Positions 1-51,516 of a DNA stretch of 64,000 bases are shown one piece after another. The notes beneath the pieces are model-generated. The model did no database searches. It saw only the letters and a list, made by a program, of their open reading frames with translations, and had not been told where the DNA came from. The stretch's first letter is position 1; the number at the start of each line of letters is the position of its first letter. This DNA is from Escherichia coli (lineage in GTDB: Bacteria > Pseudomonadota > Gammaproteobacteria > Enterobacterales > Enterobacteriaceae), in assembly GCF_016026235.1 (NCBI RefSeq), contig NZ_CP065613.1, one strand, 5' to 3'. The translations under genes and the position numbers were made by a program.

Positions 1-183
1 TGCGCCAGCAATGCCTCAGCGATGGCGCTTTCACTCCCCGTTCCTACCGCCATTGGCCGACGTCCATGCCAACTGAAGACCGTAGTGCCCTAATACTTCG
101 CGCCACGCTTTACGGTGCGTAGGCTCCGTATCCAGGATTGTGCCATCCATATCAAAAATTAAACCTGCATAACGCTCGTACAT
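1..183 (-). pseudogene. yqaB: yqaB-like HAD phosphatase, 5' part, apparently disrupted: ATG at 183-181, HAD motif I (DMDGT), in-frame stop at 31-33, second frame open to window edge
   Basis: Minus-strand translation from 183 gives MYERYAGLIFDMDGTILDTEPTHRKAWREVLGHYGLQ then LAWTSANGGRNGE-stop; a different frame reads SWHGRRPMAVGTGSESAIAEALLA to the edge. Confidence 0.5.
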
Positions 184-465
184 GGTCTTCTCGCAAGTCG
201 AAAAATATGACGCTACTTTAGCGTAATTGCTTGATTTTGTCGCTGATGGAGAAGGAGAAGAAAATTCAGGAAATGGATAAAGTAGTTATTTAGAAATGAG
301 ATATTTTTGAAGGAAATTTTTTGGAGAATATGGTGCATCTGGGAGGATTACTCGCCTTGCGGCTCGCCCTTCGGGCCGTTGCTAAAGCAACGTTATCCTC
401 CCTGGTGCCTGCAGTTAATACCCCTACCTCTTCGATATCTTCATTGCTGAAGATTTCGGAGAATA

Positions 466-542
466 TGGTGCATCCGGGAGGATTCGAACCTCCGACCGCT
501 CGGTTCGTAGCCGAGTACTCTATCCAGCTGAGCTACGGATGC
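466..542 (-). tRNA. tRNA-Arg (anticodon ACG)
   Basis: 77-nt reverse complement reads GCATCCGTAGCTCAGCTGGATAGAGTACTCGGCTACGAACCGAGCGGTCGGAGGTTCGAATCCTCCCGGATGCACCA. Confidence 0.95.
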
Positions 543-740
543 ATCGGGAAAATTTATTTTACTGCTGATATTGATATCGCTACTAAAGCCATATCAAGTA
601 AGAGATGGTGCATCCGAGAGGATTACTCGCCTTGCGGCTCGCCCTTCGGGCCGTTGCTGGCGCAACGTTATCCTCCCTGGTGCCTGCGGTTAATTCCGCT
701 ACCTCTTCGATATCTTCATTGCTGAAGATTTCGGAGAATA

Positions 741-817
741 TGGTGCATCCGGGAGGATTCGAACCTCCGACCGCTCGGTTCGTAGCCGAGTACTCTATCC
801 AGCTGAGCTACGGATGC
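741..817 (-). tRNA. tRNA-Arg (anticodon ACG)
   Basis: Identical 77-nt tRNA sequence to 466-542. Confidence 0.95.
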
Positions 818-1016
818 ATCGGGAAACTTACTTTACTGCAGATTTTTTGATACCGCTACTAAAGCCGTATCAAGTAAGAGATGGTGCATCCGGGAGGATT
901 ACTCGCCTTGCGGCTCGCCCTTCGGGCCGTTGCTAAAGCAACGTTATCCTCCCTAGTGCCTACGGTTAGTACCGCCACCTCTTCCATACCTTCATCGCTG
1001 AAAGTTACGGAGAATA

Positions 1017-1093
1017 TGGTGCATCCGGGAGGATTCGAACCTCCGACCGCTCGGTTCGTAGCCGAGTACTCTATCCAGCTGAGCTACGGATGC
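1017..1093 (-). tRNA. tRNA-Arg (anticodon ACG)
   Basis: Identical 77-nt tRNA sequence to 466-542. Confidence 0.95.
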
Positions 1094-1096
1094 AAA

Positions 1097-1504: not shown

Positions 1505-1690
1505 TTAGTAACTGGACTGCTGGGATTTTTCAGCCTGGATACGCTGGTAGATCTCTTCACGGTGAACAGAAACTTCCTTCGGGGCATTTACGCCAATACG
1601 TACCTGGTTGCCCTTTACCCCTAAAACTGTCACGGTGACCTCATCCCCAATCATGAGGGTCTCACCAACTCGACGAGTCAGAATCAGCAT
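1505..1690 (-). CDS. csrA: Carbon storage regulator CsrA (61 aa)
   Basis: Translation [61 protein letters not shown]. Confidence 0.98.
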
Positions 1691-1924: not shown

Positions 1925-4555
1925 TTATTGCAATTTCGCGCTGACCCAGCCTTTCACACTGGCTAACGCTGCAGGTAAGGCCGCAGCATCCGTACCACCG
2001 GCTTGCGCCATGTCAGGACGTCCACCACCCTTGCCGCCCACCTGCTGAGCGACCATACCAATCAGTTCCCCTGCTTTCACACGATCTGTGACGTCCTTAG
2101 ATACGCCTGCAATCAGAGAAACCTTACCTTCGGCTACCGTTGCCAGCACGATAATTGTCGACCCCAGCTGATTTTTTAAATCGTCAACCATGGTACGCAA
2201 CATTTTCGGCTCAACACCGCTAAGCTCGCTAACCAACAGCTTAACACCATTAACATCAATTGCCTTACTGGAAAGATTTGCGCTCTCCTGTGCGGCAGCT
2301 TGTTCTTTAAGCTGTTGTAGTTCTTTTTCTAACTGACGCGTACGTTCCAGTACTGAGCGCACTTTATCAGCCAGATTATTGCTATCGCCTTTCAGCAGAT
2401 GTGCGACTTCGCTTAAGCGATCGCTGTCTGCATGAACGGTGGCGATAGCGCCTTCTCCGGTTACCGCTTCGATACGACGAACGCCTGCAGCAGTGCCCGA
2501 TTCAGAGATGATGCGGAACAGACCAATATCACCAGTGCGGCTGGCGTGAGTACCGCCACACAGCTCGGTGGAGAAATCGCCCATGCTCAGCACGCGTACG
2601 CGCTCATCATACTTCTCGCCGAACAGCGCCATCGCACCTTTCGCTTTCGCCGCTTCGAGATCCATGATGTTGGTTTCGATCGGCAAATTGCGACGAATCT
2701 GTGCGTTCACCAGGTCTTCGACCGCACGAATCTCTTCTGGTTTCATCGCTTCGTTGTGTGAGAAGTCGAAGCGCAGCACCTTGTCGTTAACCAGTGAACC
2801 TTTCTGCGATACATGAGTACCCAGAACCTGGCGCAGCGCAGCGTGCATCAGGTGCGTTGCGGAGTGATTCAGACGAATACGGGCGCGACGAGCCTCATCA
2901 ACATCAGCCTGCACAGCGTCGCCCACTTTCAGAGAACCCGCAGCAAGTTTACCGATGTGACCAATCGCCTGGCCGTATTTCTGCGTATCTTCCACCACGA
3001 AGGAGAAGTTAGCGCCTTTCAGTTCGCCTTTATCACCAACCTGACCGCCGGATTCCGCATAGAATGGCGTTTGATCCAGCACGACCACAGCTTCCTGGCC
3101 TGCATTGATGGCATCAACCGCTTTACCATCAACAAACAGCGCGGTCACTTTGCCGTTCAGTTCCAGATGGTCATAGCCTTTAAATTCAGATGCACTGTCA
3201 ACACGGATCATTGCGTTGTAATCGGCACCAAAGCCGCTGGCTTCGCGCGCCCGACGACGCTGCTCTTCCATTGCTGCTTCAAAACCAGCTTCGTCAACTT
3301 TGATGTTGCGCTCACGACAAACATCAGCCGTCAGGTCAACCGGGAAGCCATAGGTGTCGTACAGACGGAAAGCAGTTTCACCATCCAGCGTATCACCAGA
3401 AAGTTTTGCCAGCTCTTCATCCAGCAACGCCAGACCGCGCTCCAGAGTACGAGCAAACTGCTCTTCTTCAGTCTTCAGCACCTGCTCAACCTGCGCCTGC
3501 TGGCGTTTCAGGTCTTCACCCGCAGAGCCCATAACGTCGATCAGCGGACCAACCAGTTTGTAGAAGAAGGTTTCTTTCGCGCCGAGCATATTACCGTGAC
3601 GCACTGCGCGACGAATGATACGACGCAGTACATAACCACGGTTTTCATTGGACGGCATTACGCCATCCGCGATCAGGAACGCACAAGAACGAATGTGGTC
3701 AGCGATTACGCGCAGCGATTTATTGCTCAGATCGGTTGCGCCAGTGACTTTCGCTACCGCCTGAATCAACGTGCGGAACAGGTCGATGTCATAGTTAGAG
3801 TTAACGTGTTGCAGCACCGCAGCAATACGCTCCAGACCCATACCGGTATCTACAGACGGCTTCGGCAGCGGTTCCATCGTGCCATCGGCCTGGCGGTTGA
3901 ACTGCATGAAAACGATGTTCCAGATCTCAATGTAGCGGTCGCCGTCTTCTTCCGGACTTCCCGGAGGGCCACCCCAAATGTGGTCGCCGTGATCGTAGAA
4001 GATTTCGGTGCACGGGCCGCACGGACCAGTGTCACCCATCTGCCAGAAGTTGTCAGATGCGTATGGCGCACCTTTGTTATCGCCGATGCGAATAATACGT
4101 TCGCGCGGGATCCCGACTTCTTTTTCCCAGATTTCGTAGGCTTCGTCGTCGCTTTCATAGACGGTAACCCACAGACGCTCTTTCGGCAGGGCAAACCATT
4201 TTTCGCTGGTCAGCAGTTCCCATGCAAACTGAATGGCATCGTGTTTGAAATAGTCGCCGAAGCTGAAGTTGCCCAGCATTTCGAAGAAGGTATGGTGACG
4301 CGCGGTGTAACCGACGTTTTCCAGGTCGTTGTGTTTACCACCCGCACGCACGCAGCGTTGGGAAGTGGTAGCGCGGGAATAATTACGCTTGTCGAGCCCA
4401 AGGAACACATCCTTGAACTGGTTCATCCCGGCGTTGGTAAACAACAAAGTTGGGTCGTTATGGGGTACCAGGGAGCTGCTGGCAACTACCTGATGTCCCT
4501 TACTATGGAAAAAGTCGAGAAACGCCTGACGGATCTCAGCGGTGCTCTTGCTCAT
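1925..4555 (-). CDS. alaS: Alanine--tRNA ligase (876 aa)
   Basis: Full-length ORF, N-terminus [21 protein letters not shown], class II aaRS. Confidence 0.97.
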
Positions 4556-17595: not shown

Positions 17596-17792
17596 CTACT
17601 GTGCCTAAAATGTCGGATGCGACGCTGGCGCGTCTTATCCGACCTACGGGGAGCGCATGTGTTGGTCACATAATGCGTTCATGTCACATACAGCTACTGT
17701 GCCCAAAATGTCGGATGCGACGCTGGCGCGTCTTATCCGACCTACGGGGACGCATGTGTAGGCCGGATAAGGCGTTTATGCCGCATCCGGCA
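17596..17792. repeat. REP/BIME cluster: two ~96-bp tandem units plus a terminal REP palindrome
   Basis: ctactgtgcc[t/c]aaaatgtcggatgcgacgctggcgcgtcttatccgacctacgggga occurs twice (17596, 17692); aggccggataaggcgtttatgccgcatccggca at 17759. Confidence 0.85.
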
Positions 17793-25060: not shown

Positions 25061-25281
25061 GTAACCATGCCGGATGCGGCGTGAACGCCTTATCCGGCCT
25101 ACATGTCGCACGAACCAGGTAGGCCCGATAAGCGTAGCGTATCGGGCAATTTGGCGTTTGGCATCAGTTAGTAACCGCGCCGGATGCGGCGTGATGAATG
25201 CCTTATCGGGCCTAGTGTCGCACGAACCAGGTAGGCCCGATAAGCGCAGCGCATCGGGCAATCTGGCGTTTGCTATCAGTT
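25061..25281. repeat. REP/BIME cluster: two ~110-bp tandem units each holding two REP palindromes
   Basis: gtaacc..gccggatgcggcgtga..ccttatc[c/g]ggcc..aggcccgataagcg.agcg.atcgggcaa repeated at 25061 and 25171. Confidence 0.85.
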
Positions 25282-29245: not shown

Positions 29246-30169
29246 TCACGCCGCCAGCAAGGAGACGAACGCTAAAAATGCAAAGCCAAACCCAGCCCAG
29301 GTAATGCGCGGAGTAATATCAAGACGCAGACGGGCCATGCTGTTTTCGAACAGCGCGATAACCAGGACGCCGACCACCAGTTTGACGATGGCAATCACCA
29401 GCGCCAGCAGCAGCCCACCGGCGGTGAAGGTTTCCATCTGTCCCCACGGGATAAATACGCCGACGAACATCTGCAGCACCACCAGCTGTTTCAGGCTGAT
29501 ACCCCATTTCATGACGCCAAAGCCGCTGCCGCTGTACTCAGAGAGCGGACCTTCCTGCAACTCCTGCTCAGCTTCCGCCAGGTCGAACGGCAGTTTGCCC
29601 ATTTCGATAAAGGTGGCGAACGCACAGGCACAAAGCGCCAGTACCAGCGGGATGCTCTGGCTCAGCGGCCAGTGATAAACGGTGTCGGTGATGTTGCTGA
29701 TGTTGGTGGAACCGGCAACCTGTGCGGCAACCCACAGACCAAGCAGCAGCATCGGTTCGACCAGCACGCCAAGCATCGCTTCACGACTCGCGCCGATAGC
29801 GGTAAACGGGCTACCGGTATCCAGACCAGAAATGGCAAAGAAGAAACGCGCGATGGCAAAGAGATACAGTAAGGTGATCAAATCACCCAGTTGCGGCAGC
29901 GGAGAACCGACGGTCACCACCGGCAGCGCAGTAGCGATAGTCAGCATGACGCCCACCATCACATACGGCGTCAGGCGGAACACCCAGCCGGAGGCATCCG
30001 GGCCAACGCTCTGGCGGCCCAGCAGTTTGAAAATGTCACGATACTCCTGCAACACACCCGGCCCGCGACGGTTATGCAAGCGGGCGCGCGCCACGCGGGT
30101 AATACCGGAGAGCAGCGGCGCAACGGCAAATAACACCAGCGCCTGAATTAACGGATATAAAAAACTCAT
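29246..30169 (-). CDS. hycD: Formate hydrogenlyase membrane subunit, NuoH-like (307 aa)
   Basis: Polytopic membrane protein in operon. Confidence 0.93.
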   Translation of the reverse strand: MSFLYPLIQALVLFAVAPLLSGITRVARARLHNRRGPGVLQEYRDIFKLLGRQSVGPDASGWVFRLTPYVMVGVMLTIATALPVVTVGSPLPQLGDLITLLYLFAIARFFFAISGLDTGSPFTAIGASREAMLGVLVEPMLLLGLWVAAQVAGSTNISNITDTVYHWPLSQSIPLVLALCACAFATFIEMGKLPFDLAEAEQELQEGPLSEYSGSGFGVMKWGISLKQLVVLQMFVGVFIPWGQMETFTAGGLLLALVIAIVKLVVGVLVIALFENSMARLRLDITPRITWAGFGFAFLAFVSLLAA

Positions 30170-30171
30170 TC

Positions 30172-31998
30172 TCAGGCTCCTCGTGAAACAATAATCACCA
30201 CCAGTACCGCCAGTTCAACCAGCGCCATCCGGCGGAACAGCAACGCACTCCCCTCGCACTGCCAGCCCGGCACCAGCGACACCGGATTCAGCCATTTGCG
30301 CAGTTTCAGCACCGGCGCAAACGCCTGTTTCACCGGCATGGCAAAACCGTGAGCGGTAATCACCATTGATTTTTCGTGGTCGTAGCCGCACACCCAGGCC
30401 GCGCCGCGGGAACGCGACGGCAAACGATCGCCTTTGCAAATCGCCATAATGATGAATGGCAGCAGCGGGCAGGCAATCAGCAGCAACGTGATCATTGGTT
30501 GAGAAACAGTGGTGTTAGCAGGCTCCAGCGGCAGAGGTACAGCAGCAGAGAGCATCGGCAGCAGCCACGGCGCAGCAACACCGCCAATTACGCAGCAAAT
30601 CGCCAGTGCCACTACGCTTACGCTCATCAGGATCGGTGCACAGGAGGCGTTTTCGGCTTCTTTGGTACGCGGCGCGCCGAGGAACGTGACGCCATAGACT
30701 TTCGCCATACACATCACCGCCAGCGCACCGGTAATTGCCAGACCCACAGCGAGCAGCGGCCCCAGCAGACGGGCAACAAACGCGCCACTATTGCTCAGTT
30801 TGAAAAAGGATTGATAGATAACCCATTCCCCGGCAAAACCGTTCAGTGGCGGCAGCGCAGCCATTGCCATCAGCCCGACTAACATGGCGATGGAGATAAC
30901 CGGCATTTTCTTGCCAATACCACCGAGTTTTTCGATATCGCGATGACCGGTACGGAACCAGACGCTCCCCGCCCCGAGGAACAGTACGCTTTTGAACAGG
31001 CTATGGTTAAGCAGATGGTACAGACCACCGACCAGACCAAGGGCAATCAGCGCCGGTTGTTCGAGCGCGATACCCGTTACGCCAGCGCCCAGCCCCAGCA
31101 GGATAATGCCGATATTTTCCAGGGTGTGGTAAGCCAGCAGGCGCTGGATGTTGTGTTCCATCAACGCATACAGACCACCGACGAACGCGGTGATCATGCC
31201 GAGCACCAGCAGCGCGATCCCCCACCACAGCGGTGCATTACCGCCCAGCAGCGACAGGGTTAAAATGCCCAGCAGGCCAATTTTCATGACTACCGTAGAA
31301 AACAACGCGGCAGCTGGCGCAGAGGCGTTCGCATGTGCCTGCGGCACCCAGCCGTGCAGCGGAATAATCCCGGCCAGCAGGCCAAAGCCAATCACACCGA
31401 GCAGCCAGATATCGGAACCGAGCGGCAGCTGTTGCATACGCATATCCAGCAGGCGCAGATCCAGCGTGCCGTAACGCTGCCACAGCAGCCAGCAAGCAAT
31501 CGCCAGCAGCAGAGTGCCAAGACGCCCCAGCGCAAACCACAGTTTGCCCTCTTTGCTGTTGCTGGTGAGGAACACCGCACACAAGGCCATGACTTCGGCC
31601 ATTACCACGAACATGCCGAGGTTGCTGGCAATGACGGCGCAGACGGCGGCAGCCATCAACATATTGATCTGCAAGCCGTTGCACTTCACCTGCGCGTGGC
31701 GATGCCAGTCAATGTTGTAGAGGCTGACAAACAGACCGCACAGACCGAGCGTAATCAGCCAAATCGCGTTAAGCGGAGAGATTTGCACATCGTAGCTTAC
31801 CAGCGACAGCGCACCGCTCACGCCAACCGCGCCAGTCAGTACAGTGAAGCCCGCGGCTGCCGTATACAGACTACCAACCGCGCCGCCAATTCCGGCTATC
31901 CAGCCGCTTAGCGCCTTTTGAAAAGAAAAGAGAAATGCCAGAACAGCGGCGGCGACAAACCACGCCACGCCGCTATTGATCAGGGAAATTGCGCTCAT
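30172..31998 (-). CDS. hycC: Formate hydrogenlyase membrane subunit, NuoL/antiporter-like (608 aa)
   Basis: Polytopic membrane protein in operon. Confidence 0.93.
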   Translation of the reverse strand: MSAISLINSGVAWFVAAAVLAFLFSFQKALSGWIAGIGGAVGSLYTAAAGFTVLTGAVGVSGALSLVSYDVQISPLNAIWLITLGLCGLFVSLYNIDWHRHAQVKCNGLQINMLMAAAVCAVIASNLGMFVVMAEVMALCAVFLTSNSKEGKLWFALGRLGTLLLAIACWLLWQRYGTLDLRLLDMRMQQLPLGSDIWLLGVIGFGLLAGIIPLHGWVPQAHANASAPAAALFSTVVMKIGLLGILTLSLLGGNAPLWWGIALLVLGMITAFVGGLYALMEHNIQRLLAYHTLENIGIILLGLGAGVTGIALEQPALIALGLVGGLYHLLNHSLFKSVLFLGAGSVWFRTGHRDIEKLGGIGKKMPVISIAMLVGLMAMAALPPLNGFAGEWVIYQSFFKLSNSGAFVARLLGPLLAVGLAITGALAVMCMAKVYGVTFLGAPRTKEAENASCAPILMSVSVVALAICCVIGGVAAPWLLPMLSAAVPLPLEPANTTVSQPMITLLLIACPLLPFIIMAICKGDRLPSRSRGAAWVCGYDHEKSMVITAHGFAMPVKQAFAPVLKLRKWLNPVSLVPGWQCEGSALLFRRMALVELAVLVVIIVSRGA

Positions 31999-47858: not shown

Positions 47859-49223
47859 ATGTCCACAATTACATTGTTATGCATTGCGTTAACTGGCGTA
47901 ATCATGCTGTTGCTGCTGGTCATCAAGGCAAAGGTACAACCATTCGTTGCTCTGCTCCTCGTCAGCCTGTTAGTCGCACTTGCGGCGGGTATACCGGCGG
48001 GCGAAGTGGGTAAAGTGATGATCGCCGGGATGGGCGGTGTGCTTGGTTCCGTCACTATTATTATTGGTCTGGGCGCTATGCTGGGGCGTATGATCGAACA
48101 CTCTGGTGGTGCAGAGTCACTGGCTAATTATTTCAGTCGCAAGTTAGGTGACAAACGAACTATCGCTGCGCTGACTCTGGCAGCGTTCTTCCTCGGTATT
48201 CCCGTCTTCTTTGATGTCGGCTTTATTATTCTTGCGCCAATCATTTACGGTTTTGCCAAGGTTGCCAAAATATCGCCACTCAAATTTGGCCTGCCTGTCG
48301 CTGGGATCATGCTAACTGTACATGTGGCGGTACCGCCGCATCCAGGCCCTGTCGCCGCAGCGGGGTTACTCCACGCAGACATCGGCTGGCTAACCATCAT
48401 CGGTATTGCGATTTCTATTCCCGTAGGGATTGTTGGCTACTTTGCAGCGAAAATAATCAATAAGCGCCAATATGCGATGTCGGTGGAAGTACTGGAACAG
48501 ATGCAACTGGCTCCGGCCAGTGAGGAAGGCGCGACAAAATTAAGCGATAAAATAAATCCACCGGGCGTCGCGCTGGTCACCTCGCTAATTGTTATTCCTA
48601 TCGCGATTATCATGGCGGGTACGGTTTCCGCAACACTGATGCCGCCTTCGCATCCCCTGCTTGGTACGCTACAGCTGATCGGCTCACCAATGGTAGCTCT
48701 AATGATTGCGCTGGTGCTGGCATTCTGGTTATTGGCTTTACGTCGCGGCTGGAGCTTACAACACACCAGCGACATTATGGGCTCAGCGCTTCCTACTGCG
48801 GCGGTAGTGATTTTGGTTACTGGTGCTGGAGGGGTATTTGGCAAAGTGCTGGTGGAATCGGGCGTCGGCAAAGCCCTTGCCAACATGTTACAAATGATTG
48901 ACCTGCCTCTGTTACCAGCCGCATTTATTATTTCACTGGCGCTGCGTGCATCGCAGGGGTCAGCAACCGTAGCAATACTGACAACCGGCGGGTTACTCTC
49001 AGAAGCGGTGATGGGATTGAATCCGATTCAGTGCGTATTGGTGACGCTGGCAGCCTGCTTTGGTGGGCTTGGTGCGTCACATATTAATGACTCAGGGTTC
49101 TGGATTGTGACCAAATATCTGGGATTGTCGGTAGCAGACGGTCTGAAAACCTGGACAGTGTTAACGACCATTCTCGGTTTTACCGGATTCTTAATTACCT
49201 GGTGCGTATGGGCGGTAATTTGA
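47859..49223 (+). CDS. ygbN: GntP-family permease (454 aa)
   Basis: Polytopic membrane protein. Confidence 0.9.
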   Translation: MSTITLLCIALTGVIMLLLLVIKAKVQPFVALLLVSLLVALAAGIPAGEVGKVMIAGMGGVLGSVTIIIGLGAMLGRMIEHSGGAESLANYFSRKLGDKRTIAALTLAAFFLGIPVFFDVGFIILAPIIYGFAKVAKISPLKFGLPVAGIMLTVHVAVPPHPGPVAAAGLLHADIGWLTIIGIAISIPVGIVGYFAAKIINKRQYAMSVEVLEQMQLAPASEEGATKLSDKINPPGVALVTSLIVIPIAIIMAGTVSATLMPPSHPLLGTLQLIGSPMVALMIALVLAFWLLALRRGWSLQHTSDIMGSALPTAAVVILVTGAGGVFGKVLVESGVGKALANMLQMIDLPLLPAAFIISLALRASQGSATVAILTTGGLLSEAVMGLNPIQCVLVTLAACFGGLGASHINDSGFWIVTKYLGLSVADGLKTWTVLTTILGFTGFLITWCVWAVI

Positions 49224-49231
49224 CCTTTTAT

Positions 49232-49468
49232 TTAGCGCTTACCTTCCGCCAGCAGCGGCGGAATGCTCGGCACCATTGGCGCGTCATCAATATCTTTCTG
49301 CGTCATGCGGAACGCTTCGGGATAATGTTCGCGGCTGGTGCGGCGTAGCGGTTCGGTATCGCGCCAGGTATAAAGGCAATGCTGGCACTGATATACCGTC
49401 CAGACATCTTTCACCGGCGATTTCGCCATCACTTCAATCTGTTCATCGGCACAACGTGGACAAATCAT
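49232..49468 (-). CDS. ecdD: Small subunit of UbiD/UbiX-type aromatic acid decarboxylase (78 aa, Cys-rich)
   Basis: MICPRCADEQIE...CQHC; last gene of the three-gene operon; symbol by analogy with O157 annotation. Confidence 0.7.
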   Translation of the reverse strand: MICPRCADEQIEVMAKSPVKDVWTVYQCQHCLYTWRDTEPLRRTSREHYPEAFRMTQKDIDDAPMVPSIPPLLAEGKR

Positions 49469-49478
49469 CTTGTTCTCC

Positions 49479-50906
49479 TTATTTACGTGCAGCCAGCATA
49501 GCGGTCAGTTTTTCAGCCCAGGCTTTGGTTTCCGGCAAATCCACCACCGGCTGGCTGTAGTGACCACGGTTGTCCGGGGCGACAGGCGTGGTGGCGTCGA
49601 TAATCAGCTTGTCGGTGATCCCCGCCGGGCTTGAGCCAGGGTCGAGTTCCAGCACGGACATATTCGGCAACTGCACCAAATCCCCTGCCGGATTTACTTT
49701 CGAGGAGAGCGCCCACATCACCTGCGGCAGGTTGAACGGGTCAACGTCTTCATCGACCATAATCACCATCTTTACGTAGCCCAGACCGTGCGGCGTGGTC
49801 ATCGCACGCAGGCCCACCGCGCGGGCAAAGCCGCCGTAGCGTTTTTTGGTGGAGATAATCGCCAGCAGGCCGTGGGTGTACATGGCGTTTACCGCCTGCA
49901 CTTCCGGGAACTCGGCTTTCAGTTGTTGATACAGCGGTACGCAGGTGGCTGGCCCCATCAGGTAGTCGATTTCGGTCCACGGCATGCCGAGGTACAGCGA
50001 TTCGAAAATCGGCCTGGTGCGGTAAGAGACTTTATCGATGCGCACCACGGTCATGTTGCGCCCACCGGAGTAGTGCCCGGTAAACTCACCGAACGGCCCT
50101 TCGATTTCGCGTTTACGGCTTTCGATAACCCCTTCGAGGATCACTTCTGAACCCCACGGCACATCAAAACCGGTCAGCGGGGCGGTGGCGATCGGGTACG
50201 GGCTTTCACGCAGCGCGCCTGCCATTTCATACTCAGACTGATCGTATTTCAGCGGCGTGGCCCCCATCAGCGTGATGATCGGATCGTTACCGAGCGTGAT
50301 CGCAATCGGCAGATCTTCACCGCGCTCTTCTGCTTTATGCAGATGCAGGGCGATATCGTGCATCGGCACCGGTTGCAGGCCGAGCTTACGCTTGCCCTTC
50401 ACTTCCATGCGGTAGATGCCGACGTTCTGCTTGCCGAAGTTATCTGGGTCGAGCGGATCGCGGGAAACCACGCAGGCTTTGTCGAGATAGAAACCGCCAT
50501 CGCCATCGTTTAAACGAAACAGCGGCAGGATATCGAACAGGTTAATCTCTTCGCCATCGACGGTGTTCTGCGCCCAGGCTGGATTGGCGCGGCGCTCCGG
50601 GGCAATCGGGAAGTTATCCCAGCGGCGGATAAACTCATCAATCTGTTTTTTAACCGGGGTGTTTGGCGGCAGGCCCAAGGAAATCGCGTGGTTCTGCCAG
50701 GAACCGATGGTATTCATCGCCACGCGGGCATCGGTAAAACCGCGAATATTATCAAACCACAGCGCCGGTGCACCATCGCCGATACGCCCGGTGGCGTTGG
50801 CAGCGGCAGCCAGATCCGGTTCCGCGTTCACCTCTTCGCTGATTTTCAGTAACTGGCCGTGGTCATCAAGCGCCTGTAAAAAGCTGCGTAAATCATCAAA
50901 TGCCAT
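49479..50906 (-). CDS. ecdC: UbiD-family (prFMN-dependent) aromatic acid decarboxylase (475 aa)
   Basis: UbiD-like N-terminus MAFDDLRSFLQALDDHGQLLKI; absent from K-12 at this locus. Confidence 0.85.
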   Translation of the reverse strand: MAFDDLRSFLQALDDHGQLLKISEEVNAEPDLAAAANATGRIGDGAPALWFDNIRGFTDARVAMNTIGSWQNHAISLGLPPNTPVKKQIDEFIRRWDNFPIAPERRANPAWAQNTVDGEEINLFDILPLFRLNDGDGGFYLDKACVVSRDPLDPDNFGKQNVGIYRMEVKGKRKLGLQPVPMHDIALHLHKAEERGEDLPIAITLGNDPIITLMGATPLKYDQSEYEMAGALRESPYPIATAPLTGFDVPWGSEVILEGVIESRKREIEGPFGEFTGHYSGGRNMTVVRIDKVSYRTRPIFESLYLGMPWTEIDYLMGPATCVPLYQQLKAEFPEVQAVNAMYTHGLLAIISTKKRYGGFARAVGLRAMTTPHGLGYVKMVIMVDEDVDPFNLPQVMWALSSKVNPAGDLVQLPNMSVLELDPGSSPAGITDKLIIDATTPVAPDNRGHYSQPVVDLPETKAWAEKLTAMLAARK

Positions 50907-51499
50907 TATTCATTCTCCTGAGAAAAATTCCGGGCCTGCGGCAATCCTTGCCAGCGCCTGGCGTGGGGATGTTCGAGGCCAAATTGATCCAGCACGCGGG
51001 CTACCACATGGTGGACAATGTCATCTACCGTTTCGGGATGGTTATAAAAGGCAGGCATCGGCGGCACCATCGCCACGCCCATGCGTGAAAGTGCGAGCAT
51101 ATTTTCGAGATGGATGGTGCTAAGCGGCATTTCACGCGGTACCAGCACCAGTTTGCGGCCTTCTTTGAGCACGACGTCCGCCGCGCGCCCTACCAGGCCA
51201 TCGGCGTAACCGGCACGGATACCGGCGAGCGTTTTCATACTGCACGGAATAACGATCATGCCGTCGGTACGAAAGGAACCTGAGGAGATGGTCGCCGCCT
51301 GATCCGCCGGGTTATGGCTGAAGTCTGCGAGGGCAGCAACATCGCGGGCGCTGTAAGGCGTTTCCAGTTCAATGGTGGTTTTCGCCCACTTCGACATCAC
51401 CAGATGAGTCTCGACATTCGGCATCTCCCGCAGCGCTTGCAGTAATGCCACACCAAGAGGCGCACCGGTAGCCCCTGTCATCCCGACGATCAGTTTCAT
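50906..51499 (-). CDS. ecdB: UbiX-like flavin prenyltransferase, Pad1-type (197 aa)
   Basis: MKLIVGMTGATGAPLGVALLQAL UbiX signature; 1-nt overlap with the UbiD gene. Confidence 0.85.
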   Translation of the reverse strand: MKLIVGMTGATGAPLGVALLQALREMPNVETHLVMSKWAKTTIELETPYSARDVAALADFSHNPADQAATISSGSFRTDGMIVIPCSMKTLAGIRAGYADGLVGRAADVVLKEGRKLVLVPREMPLSTIHLENMLALSRMGVAMVPPMPAFYNHPETVDDIVHHVVARVLDQFGLEHPHARRWQGLPQARNFSQENE

Positions 51500-51516
51500 T
51501 GCTTATCCTCTTAATT

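Follow-up and report, generated by a model that had tools for sequence, protein, structure and literature searches.

We consider it very probable that the first 183 nucleotides of the analysed DNA (the window, a 64,000-nt stretch of Escherichia coli contig NZ_CP065613.1, assembly GCF_016026235.1) represent the 5' half of a yqaB pseudogene, in which a recent loss of 182 bp is predicted to have abolished YqaB activity, and which belongs to a small clonal group. Such a pseudogene is ordinary: the gene concerned is known and non-essential, and the loss is recent and specific to the lineage. The positions of the features are listed in Table 1.

Table 1. Features of the yqaB region and of other sites in the window
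Feature	Window position	Strand	Description
Retained 3' part of yqaB	1..74	-	Gene nt 292-365 in the window; residues S98-A121; +1 frame relative to the start codon; continues past the edge
84-codon C-terminal remnant ORF, start	1..53	-	ATG 53-51 corresponds to Met104/105 of YqaB; MAVGTGSES...VDVRLL
N-terminal yqaB remnant ORF	31..183	-	ATG 183-181; 50 codons + TGA (33-31); translation MYERYAGLIFDMDGTILDTEPTHRKAWREVLGHYGLQLAWTSANGGRNGE, then stop
Codons 38-50 of the 50-codon ORF	72-34	-	13 codons out of frame
Deletion junction	72..75	-	Fusion of native nt 109 (window 75) with native nt 292 (window 74)
Codons 1-37 of the 50-codon ORF	183-73	-	Native YqaB; HAD motif I D11-M-D13-G-T (DMDGT)
Unchanged yqaB upstream region	184..330	-	One substitution relative to the reference
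Terminator-like hairpin	210-224	-	ACGCTAAAGTAGCGT, then T-run; between the last tRNA-Arg and the yqaB ATG, 27 nt before the latter
Tandem array	330-1094	-	2.8 copies of a 276-nt unit
csrA	1505-1690	-	
alaS	1925-4555	-	
norW-hypF region	17596-17780		Aligns twice; clustered mismatches relative to FDAARGOS_943
ascB-hycI intergenic region	25131-25135		5-nt indel
mutS-rpoS variable region	~49200-52100		
rpoS	~52174-53166	-	
rpoS nonsense codon	52627-52629	-	CGA to TGA at codon 180 (...KELNVYL, then stop)
Modelled elements of intact YqaB			Residues: beta 7-11; cap helices 20-33, 40-45, 51-61, 68-86; core helix 93-99; beta 105-108

The window was aligned with the intact yqaB gene of NZ_CP104613.1 (L001:1918-2484, 188 aa). 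The 321 aligned bases around the break contained one 182-nt gap and two substitutions. The lost segment is nt 110-291 of yqaB, running from base 2 of codon 37 through base 3 of codon 97. A sequence-only reading of this DNA had proposed that yqaB was disrupted by an internal deletion or frameshift and that roughly 180 nt of cap-domain sequence was missing. Both proposals were borne out by the alignment, in which a single clean gap removes cap-domain sequence and no continuous in-frame yqaB is left. Chance resemblance can be ruled out because the flanks are near-identical to a gene found in at least 5,412 of the 5,426 complete E. coli genomes.

Both ends of the deleted stretch carry the trinucleotide AGT (window 74-72), so the breakpoint can be placed only to within 3 nt. 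At the end points in intact yqaB no direct or inverted repeat longer than AGT was detected; the 7-nt repeats were not located at both ends. A repeat- or hairpin-mediated deletion beyond the AGT microhomology was considered and found unsupported, since the end points have no longer repeat. The 182 bp would have been lost in a recent ancestor of the strain, and the 3-nt microhomology suggests that this most likely happened by replication slippage or illegitimate recombination between the two AGT trinucleotides. Microhomology of this length would be weak evidence for any particular deletion mechanism.

Since 182 (3 x 60 + 2) is not a multiple of three, the deletion shifts the reading frame, with the result that a stop codon follows after 13 foreign codons and the downstream part of the gene is in another frame. 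This +1 frame (window 74..3, minus strand) reads SWHGRRPMAVGTGSESAIAEALLA, identical to YqaB residues 98-121, and is open to the window edge. The 84-codon ORF, in which motifs II-IV lie, shares 23 nt with the 50-codon ORF and, as read from locus L002 of another carrier of the deletion, terminates beyond the window in a GTGA overlap with yqaA. The ORFs on the plus strand over window 1-221 were only 21-27 aa long, contained nothing notable and were set aside as chance. Retranslation agreed with the sequence-only reading, which had described a frame with HAD motif I ending after 50 codons and a second frame, open to the window edge after codon 37, that resembled HAD motif II; the MAVGT of the latter aligns with the motif II strand (beta 105-108).

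The consequences for the protein were assessed with an AlphaFold2 model of intact YqaB (pLDDT 96.0, pTM 0.89). According to the model, the deleted residues 37-97 comprise three of the four cap helices (helices 2-4), the hinge through which the chain returns from cap to core, and most of the core helix 93-99, which fits the earlier remark that no room was left for a cap between the motifs. An alignment of 80 family sequences placed the invariant G48 and the near-invariant K75 in the deleted segment. The HAD motifs are no longer on one polypeptide: F10-D11-x-D13-G14-T15 is encoded by the 50-codon ORF, and T108 (motif II), K142-P143 (motif III) and E166-D167 (motif IV) by the ORF in the +1 frame. 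The four-helix C1 cap that separates motifs I and II in HAD subfamily IA (beta-PGM/YqaB subfamily TIGR02009) is not retained. The two pieces were also scored with the NCBIfam equivalog NF008000 (fructose-1-phosphate/6-phosphogluconate phosphatase; model positions 1-188), for which a whole-protein score of at least 215 bits, the cut-off, identifies a YqaB orthologue. The score was 393.8 bits for an intact YqaB relative, 74.2 bits for the 50-aa piece (matching residues/model positions 1-39 only) and 166.7 bits for the 84-aa piece (model positions 105-188), and thus both pieces fell below the cut-off. The orthologous position, after the tRNA-Ser/tRNA-Arg array and before yqaA-gshA-luxS, is kept.

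Translation from the native ATG would halt after 50 codons, and the nucleophile D11/D13 would be apart from motifs II-IV. With the nucleophile and these motifs on separate ORFs, no single product is expected to be an active phosphatase. From the sequence and the structural model we infer that no product would possess a complete active site or cap, and YqaB enzyme function is predicted to be lost. The intact enzyme has been employed as a fructose-1-phosphatase (PMC6202814).

Compared with E. coli YqaB (UniProt P77475; NF008000), the allele occupies the same locus, between the serV-argV... tRNA array and yqaA-gshA, its retained parts are at least 99% identical at the DNA level, and motif I as well as motifs II-IV are present in the DNA. 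It differs by the absence of nt 110-291, by the shifted frame and by the split into ORFs of 50 and 84 codons. A Foldseek comparison of the intact YqaB model with Lactococcus lactis beta-PGM (2wf5/1lvh), E. coli YniC (1te2) and human HDHD1A (3l5k) gave TM values of 0.81-0.86. In a sequence alignment with beta-PGM, D11/D13 of YqaB appear to pair with D8/D10, and K142 with K145. Beta-phosphoglucomutase-like C1-capped HAD enzymes have a four-helix cap after motif I, which the window allele cannot encode. This cap is needed to bind the substrate and to exclude solvent. The original survey of YqaB substrates is reportedly that of Kuznetsova et al. in 2006.

The distribution of the deletion was studied with a 600-nt query over the region, which matched 5,425 of the 5,426 complete RefSeq E. 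coli genomes, at least 5,412 of them over 80% or more of its length. The matches listed span 782 or about 920 nt, so each carries extra sequence that includes the 182 nt, and each has an annotated yqaB ('fructose-1-phosphate/6-phosphogluconate phosphatase'). A 40-mer spanning the junction had no match in the 5,426 complete E. coli genomes, and a 33-mer spanning it had none among the metagenome contigs. The nearest complete genome, that of E. coli FDAARGOS_943 (NZ_CP065615.1), is 99.9% identical over 24 kb, with about 35 substitutions relative to the window in approximately 63 kb; it has an intact yqaB, the product of which is the common protein WP_000273309.1. Since the best identity to complete E. 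coli genomes was only about 98.7% in the first 12 kb of the window, an origin from Shigella was considered; it was rejected because the deposited proteins carry the label E. coli and FDAARGOS_943 matches most of the window at 99.9% identity. Absence of the junction from the complete genomes, together with the intact gene of the nearest relative, indicates that the deletion is derived, recent and confined to a small clonal group. The locus has the attributes of a unitary pseudogene formed by deletion: it is clearly homologous to a functional gene, its frame is disrupted, and sister lineages retain the intact ancestral state. A search of the literature on yqaB pseudogenes found nothing relevant to E. 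coli.

It is unlikely that the loss of yqaB was adaptive rather than neutral, i.e. that the niche of the lineage, or laboratory storage, favoured the loss of a promiscuous sugar-phosphate phosphatase or a lower level of YqaA. Such selection would be consistent with the nonsense mutation that the strain carries in rpoS, a classic selected change in stored or starved cultures, and with the other independent yqaB lesions in isolate assemblies, namely 2-nt deletions at two different sites (L009:146-1279 in SRR10987364 and L010:141-1274 in GCA_037632705.1) and one additional A in an A-run (L011:76-1211 in SRR13358234). However, a handful of lesions among very many genomes is the expectation for neutral decay of a dispensable gene. 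The at least 5,412 complete genomes matching 80% or more of the query, with a normally annotated yqaB in all of the matches listed, and the absence of the junction from metagenome contigs also speak against selection. The more general proposal that yqaB, possibly with the coupled yqaA, is repeatedly inactivated under selection in some lineages of E. coli, for instance on long-term storage or in a particular niche, appears very improbable; if it were true, the 182-bp deletion and the independent frameshifts elsewhere would reflect selection rather than neutral decay.

Apparent point changes were seen in a further broken yqaB (L008:449-1582). As in the window, the other disrupted alleles have the break upstream of codon 104, and the same 84-aa C-terminal ORF was called as a separate gene. 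Unlike the window allele, those of L009, L010 and L011 are frameshifts of 1-2 nt that lie elsewhere in the gene, in different genetic backgrounds, and do not have the 182-nt deletion.

The nonsense mutation splits rpoS into ORFs of 179 and 146 aa. The public collection lists the 179-aa RpoS product in 213 blocks and in differing genomic contexts, which indicates that this allele recurs. FDAARGOS_943 has CGA at codon 180 of rpoS but carries a 1-nt insertion of its own, thus the different lesions of the two strains represent two independent knock-outs. Other lesions of FDAARGOS_943 (L015/L016; matching window positions ~1418, 30143-30218, 37406, 47525 and 63284), none of which is present in the window, are an IS1 in the csrA-serV interval, the loss of some 75 nt from hycC, 10 inserted nt in fhlA, an IS5 in the TIM-barrel gene adjoining otnC, and an ISEc60 beside iap. 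Of the two sister strains, only FDAARGOS_943 has damaged formate hydrogenlyase genes. Both sister strains are accumulating independent gene losses. The double alignment and clustered mismatches in the norW-hypF region suggest a variable local repeat. The variable region between mutS and rpoS contains the genes of hydroxyarylic acid decarboxylase subunits B, C and D and of a MarR-family regulator, which are presumably absent from K-12.

The genes around the deletion, all on the minus strand (alaS, csrA, tRNA-Ser(GCT), three tRNA-Arg(ACG) and yqaB), have the standard E. coli arrangement. In each unit of the tandem array, a single tRNA-Arg(ACG) precedes an RtT-like element that scores 28-29 bits with Rfam RF00391 and does not reach the gathering score of 45. 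NZ_CP104613.1 has four copies of tRNA-Arg versus three here, showing that the copy number varies between strains. The hairpin upstream of yqaB probably terminates the tRNA operon. The stretch from this hairpin to yqaB showed no sigma-70-like promoter, raising the question of how yqaB-yqaA is transcribed.

Beyond the window edge, as read from locus L002, yqaB is followed by an intact yqaA (142 aa, a VTT/DedA-domain membrane protein) and then by gshA, luxS and emrB. The GTG of yqaA overlaps the stop codon of yqaB as GTGA in both the NZ_CP104613.1 and the L002 loci. Gene overlaps of this type are typical of translational coupling. Ribosomes starting at the yqaB ATG would now stop about 230 nt upstream of yqaA, and the coupling would survive only if the 84-codon ORF were translated. 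The ATG of this ORF lies 20 nt upstream of the new stop, and no convincing Shine-Dalgarno sequence was found ahead of it. The early stop and the poor start of the 84-codon ORF make reduced translation of YqaA plausible, as a secondary effect of the yqaB deletion inferred from the sequence.

The same arrangement bears on whether the locus could still yield a working protein, either as a cap-less fusion produced by a +1 ribosomal shift near the junction (CUU-C AGU) or by reassembly of the 50-aa and 84-aa fragments. The distance between the ATG and the stop permits termination-reinitiation and, by our own reading of the sequence, CUU-C would let tRNA-Leu re-pair in the +1 frame, but the site offers neither a slow codon nor a suitably spaced Shine-Dalgarno-like sequence as a stimulatory element, the internal ATG is not preceded by a good Shine-Dalgarno sequence, and both fragments are under the NF008000 family cut-off. 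Moreover, any product would lack cap helices 2-4, the hinge, the core helix 93-99, G48 and K75. No cap-less relative was encountered: all full-length homologues among the best 150 of 1.84 billion representatives align across the cap. We therefore regard a working product of the locus as highly improbable, and a functional cap-less or two-piece HAD protein as even less likely than selected inactivation.

The deletion junction itself was evaluated by comparison with other assemblies. The exact 50-aa product was called on 18 contigs of the public collection, originating from different submitters and assemblers. Its carriers include contigs of two NCBI draft assemblies, LSGM01000018.1 (GCA_001907565.1, 81.7 kb) and LSGK01000005.1 (GCA_001907545.1, 9.5 kb), and the Logan assembly of run ERR3331069. 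On a contig of 4,564,698 bp the product was deposited as STM06280.1, 'putative phosphatase [Escherichia coli]', and the 84-codon ORF separately as STM06281.1, 'putative phosphatase'. Locus L002 differs from the window by one mismatch in 6,183 nt, locus L003 is identical to it over 551 nt, and a gap identical to that of the window is present in L002, L003, L004 and L012. The junction is clean, without Ns, and its flanks are 99-100% identical. The finding of the same product and the same gap by different submitters and assemblers indicates that the junction is genuine, and the concern about mis-assembly raised by the sequence-only reading is answered by the agreement of the 18 contigs; for this assembly the junction rests on agreement with other assemblies, several of which may re-sequence one culture-collection strain. 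It is scarcely credible that the junction is an assembly or sequencing artefact and that the strain truly has an intact yqaB: this is a general possibility, of which two other 'split yqaB' contigs with scaffold N-gaps (L005 and L006) are instances, but it is opposed by the clean junction with its matching flanks, by end points without a long repeat able to collapse an assembly, and by the 18 contigs, which include the 4.56-Mb contig and Logan's uniform raw-run assemblies. A further split yqaB (L007) was seen on a metagenome contig with 2x coverage.

In annotation, the deposited coding sequences of 50 and 84 aa, each called 'putative phosphatase', ought to be joined as one yqaB pseudogene. The 182-bp deletion offers a convenient PCR-size marker for the clonal group that includes GCA_001907565.1, GCA_001907545.1 and the strain of STM06280.1. 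Beyond its use as a strain marker and an annotation correction, the loss of yqaB has little significance. The strain is predicted to be without one of the many overlapping HAD sugar-phosphate phosphatases of E. coli, and its level of YqaA may be lower.
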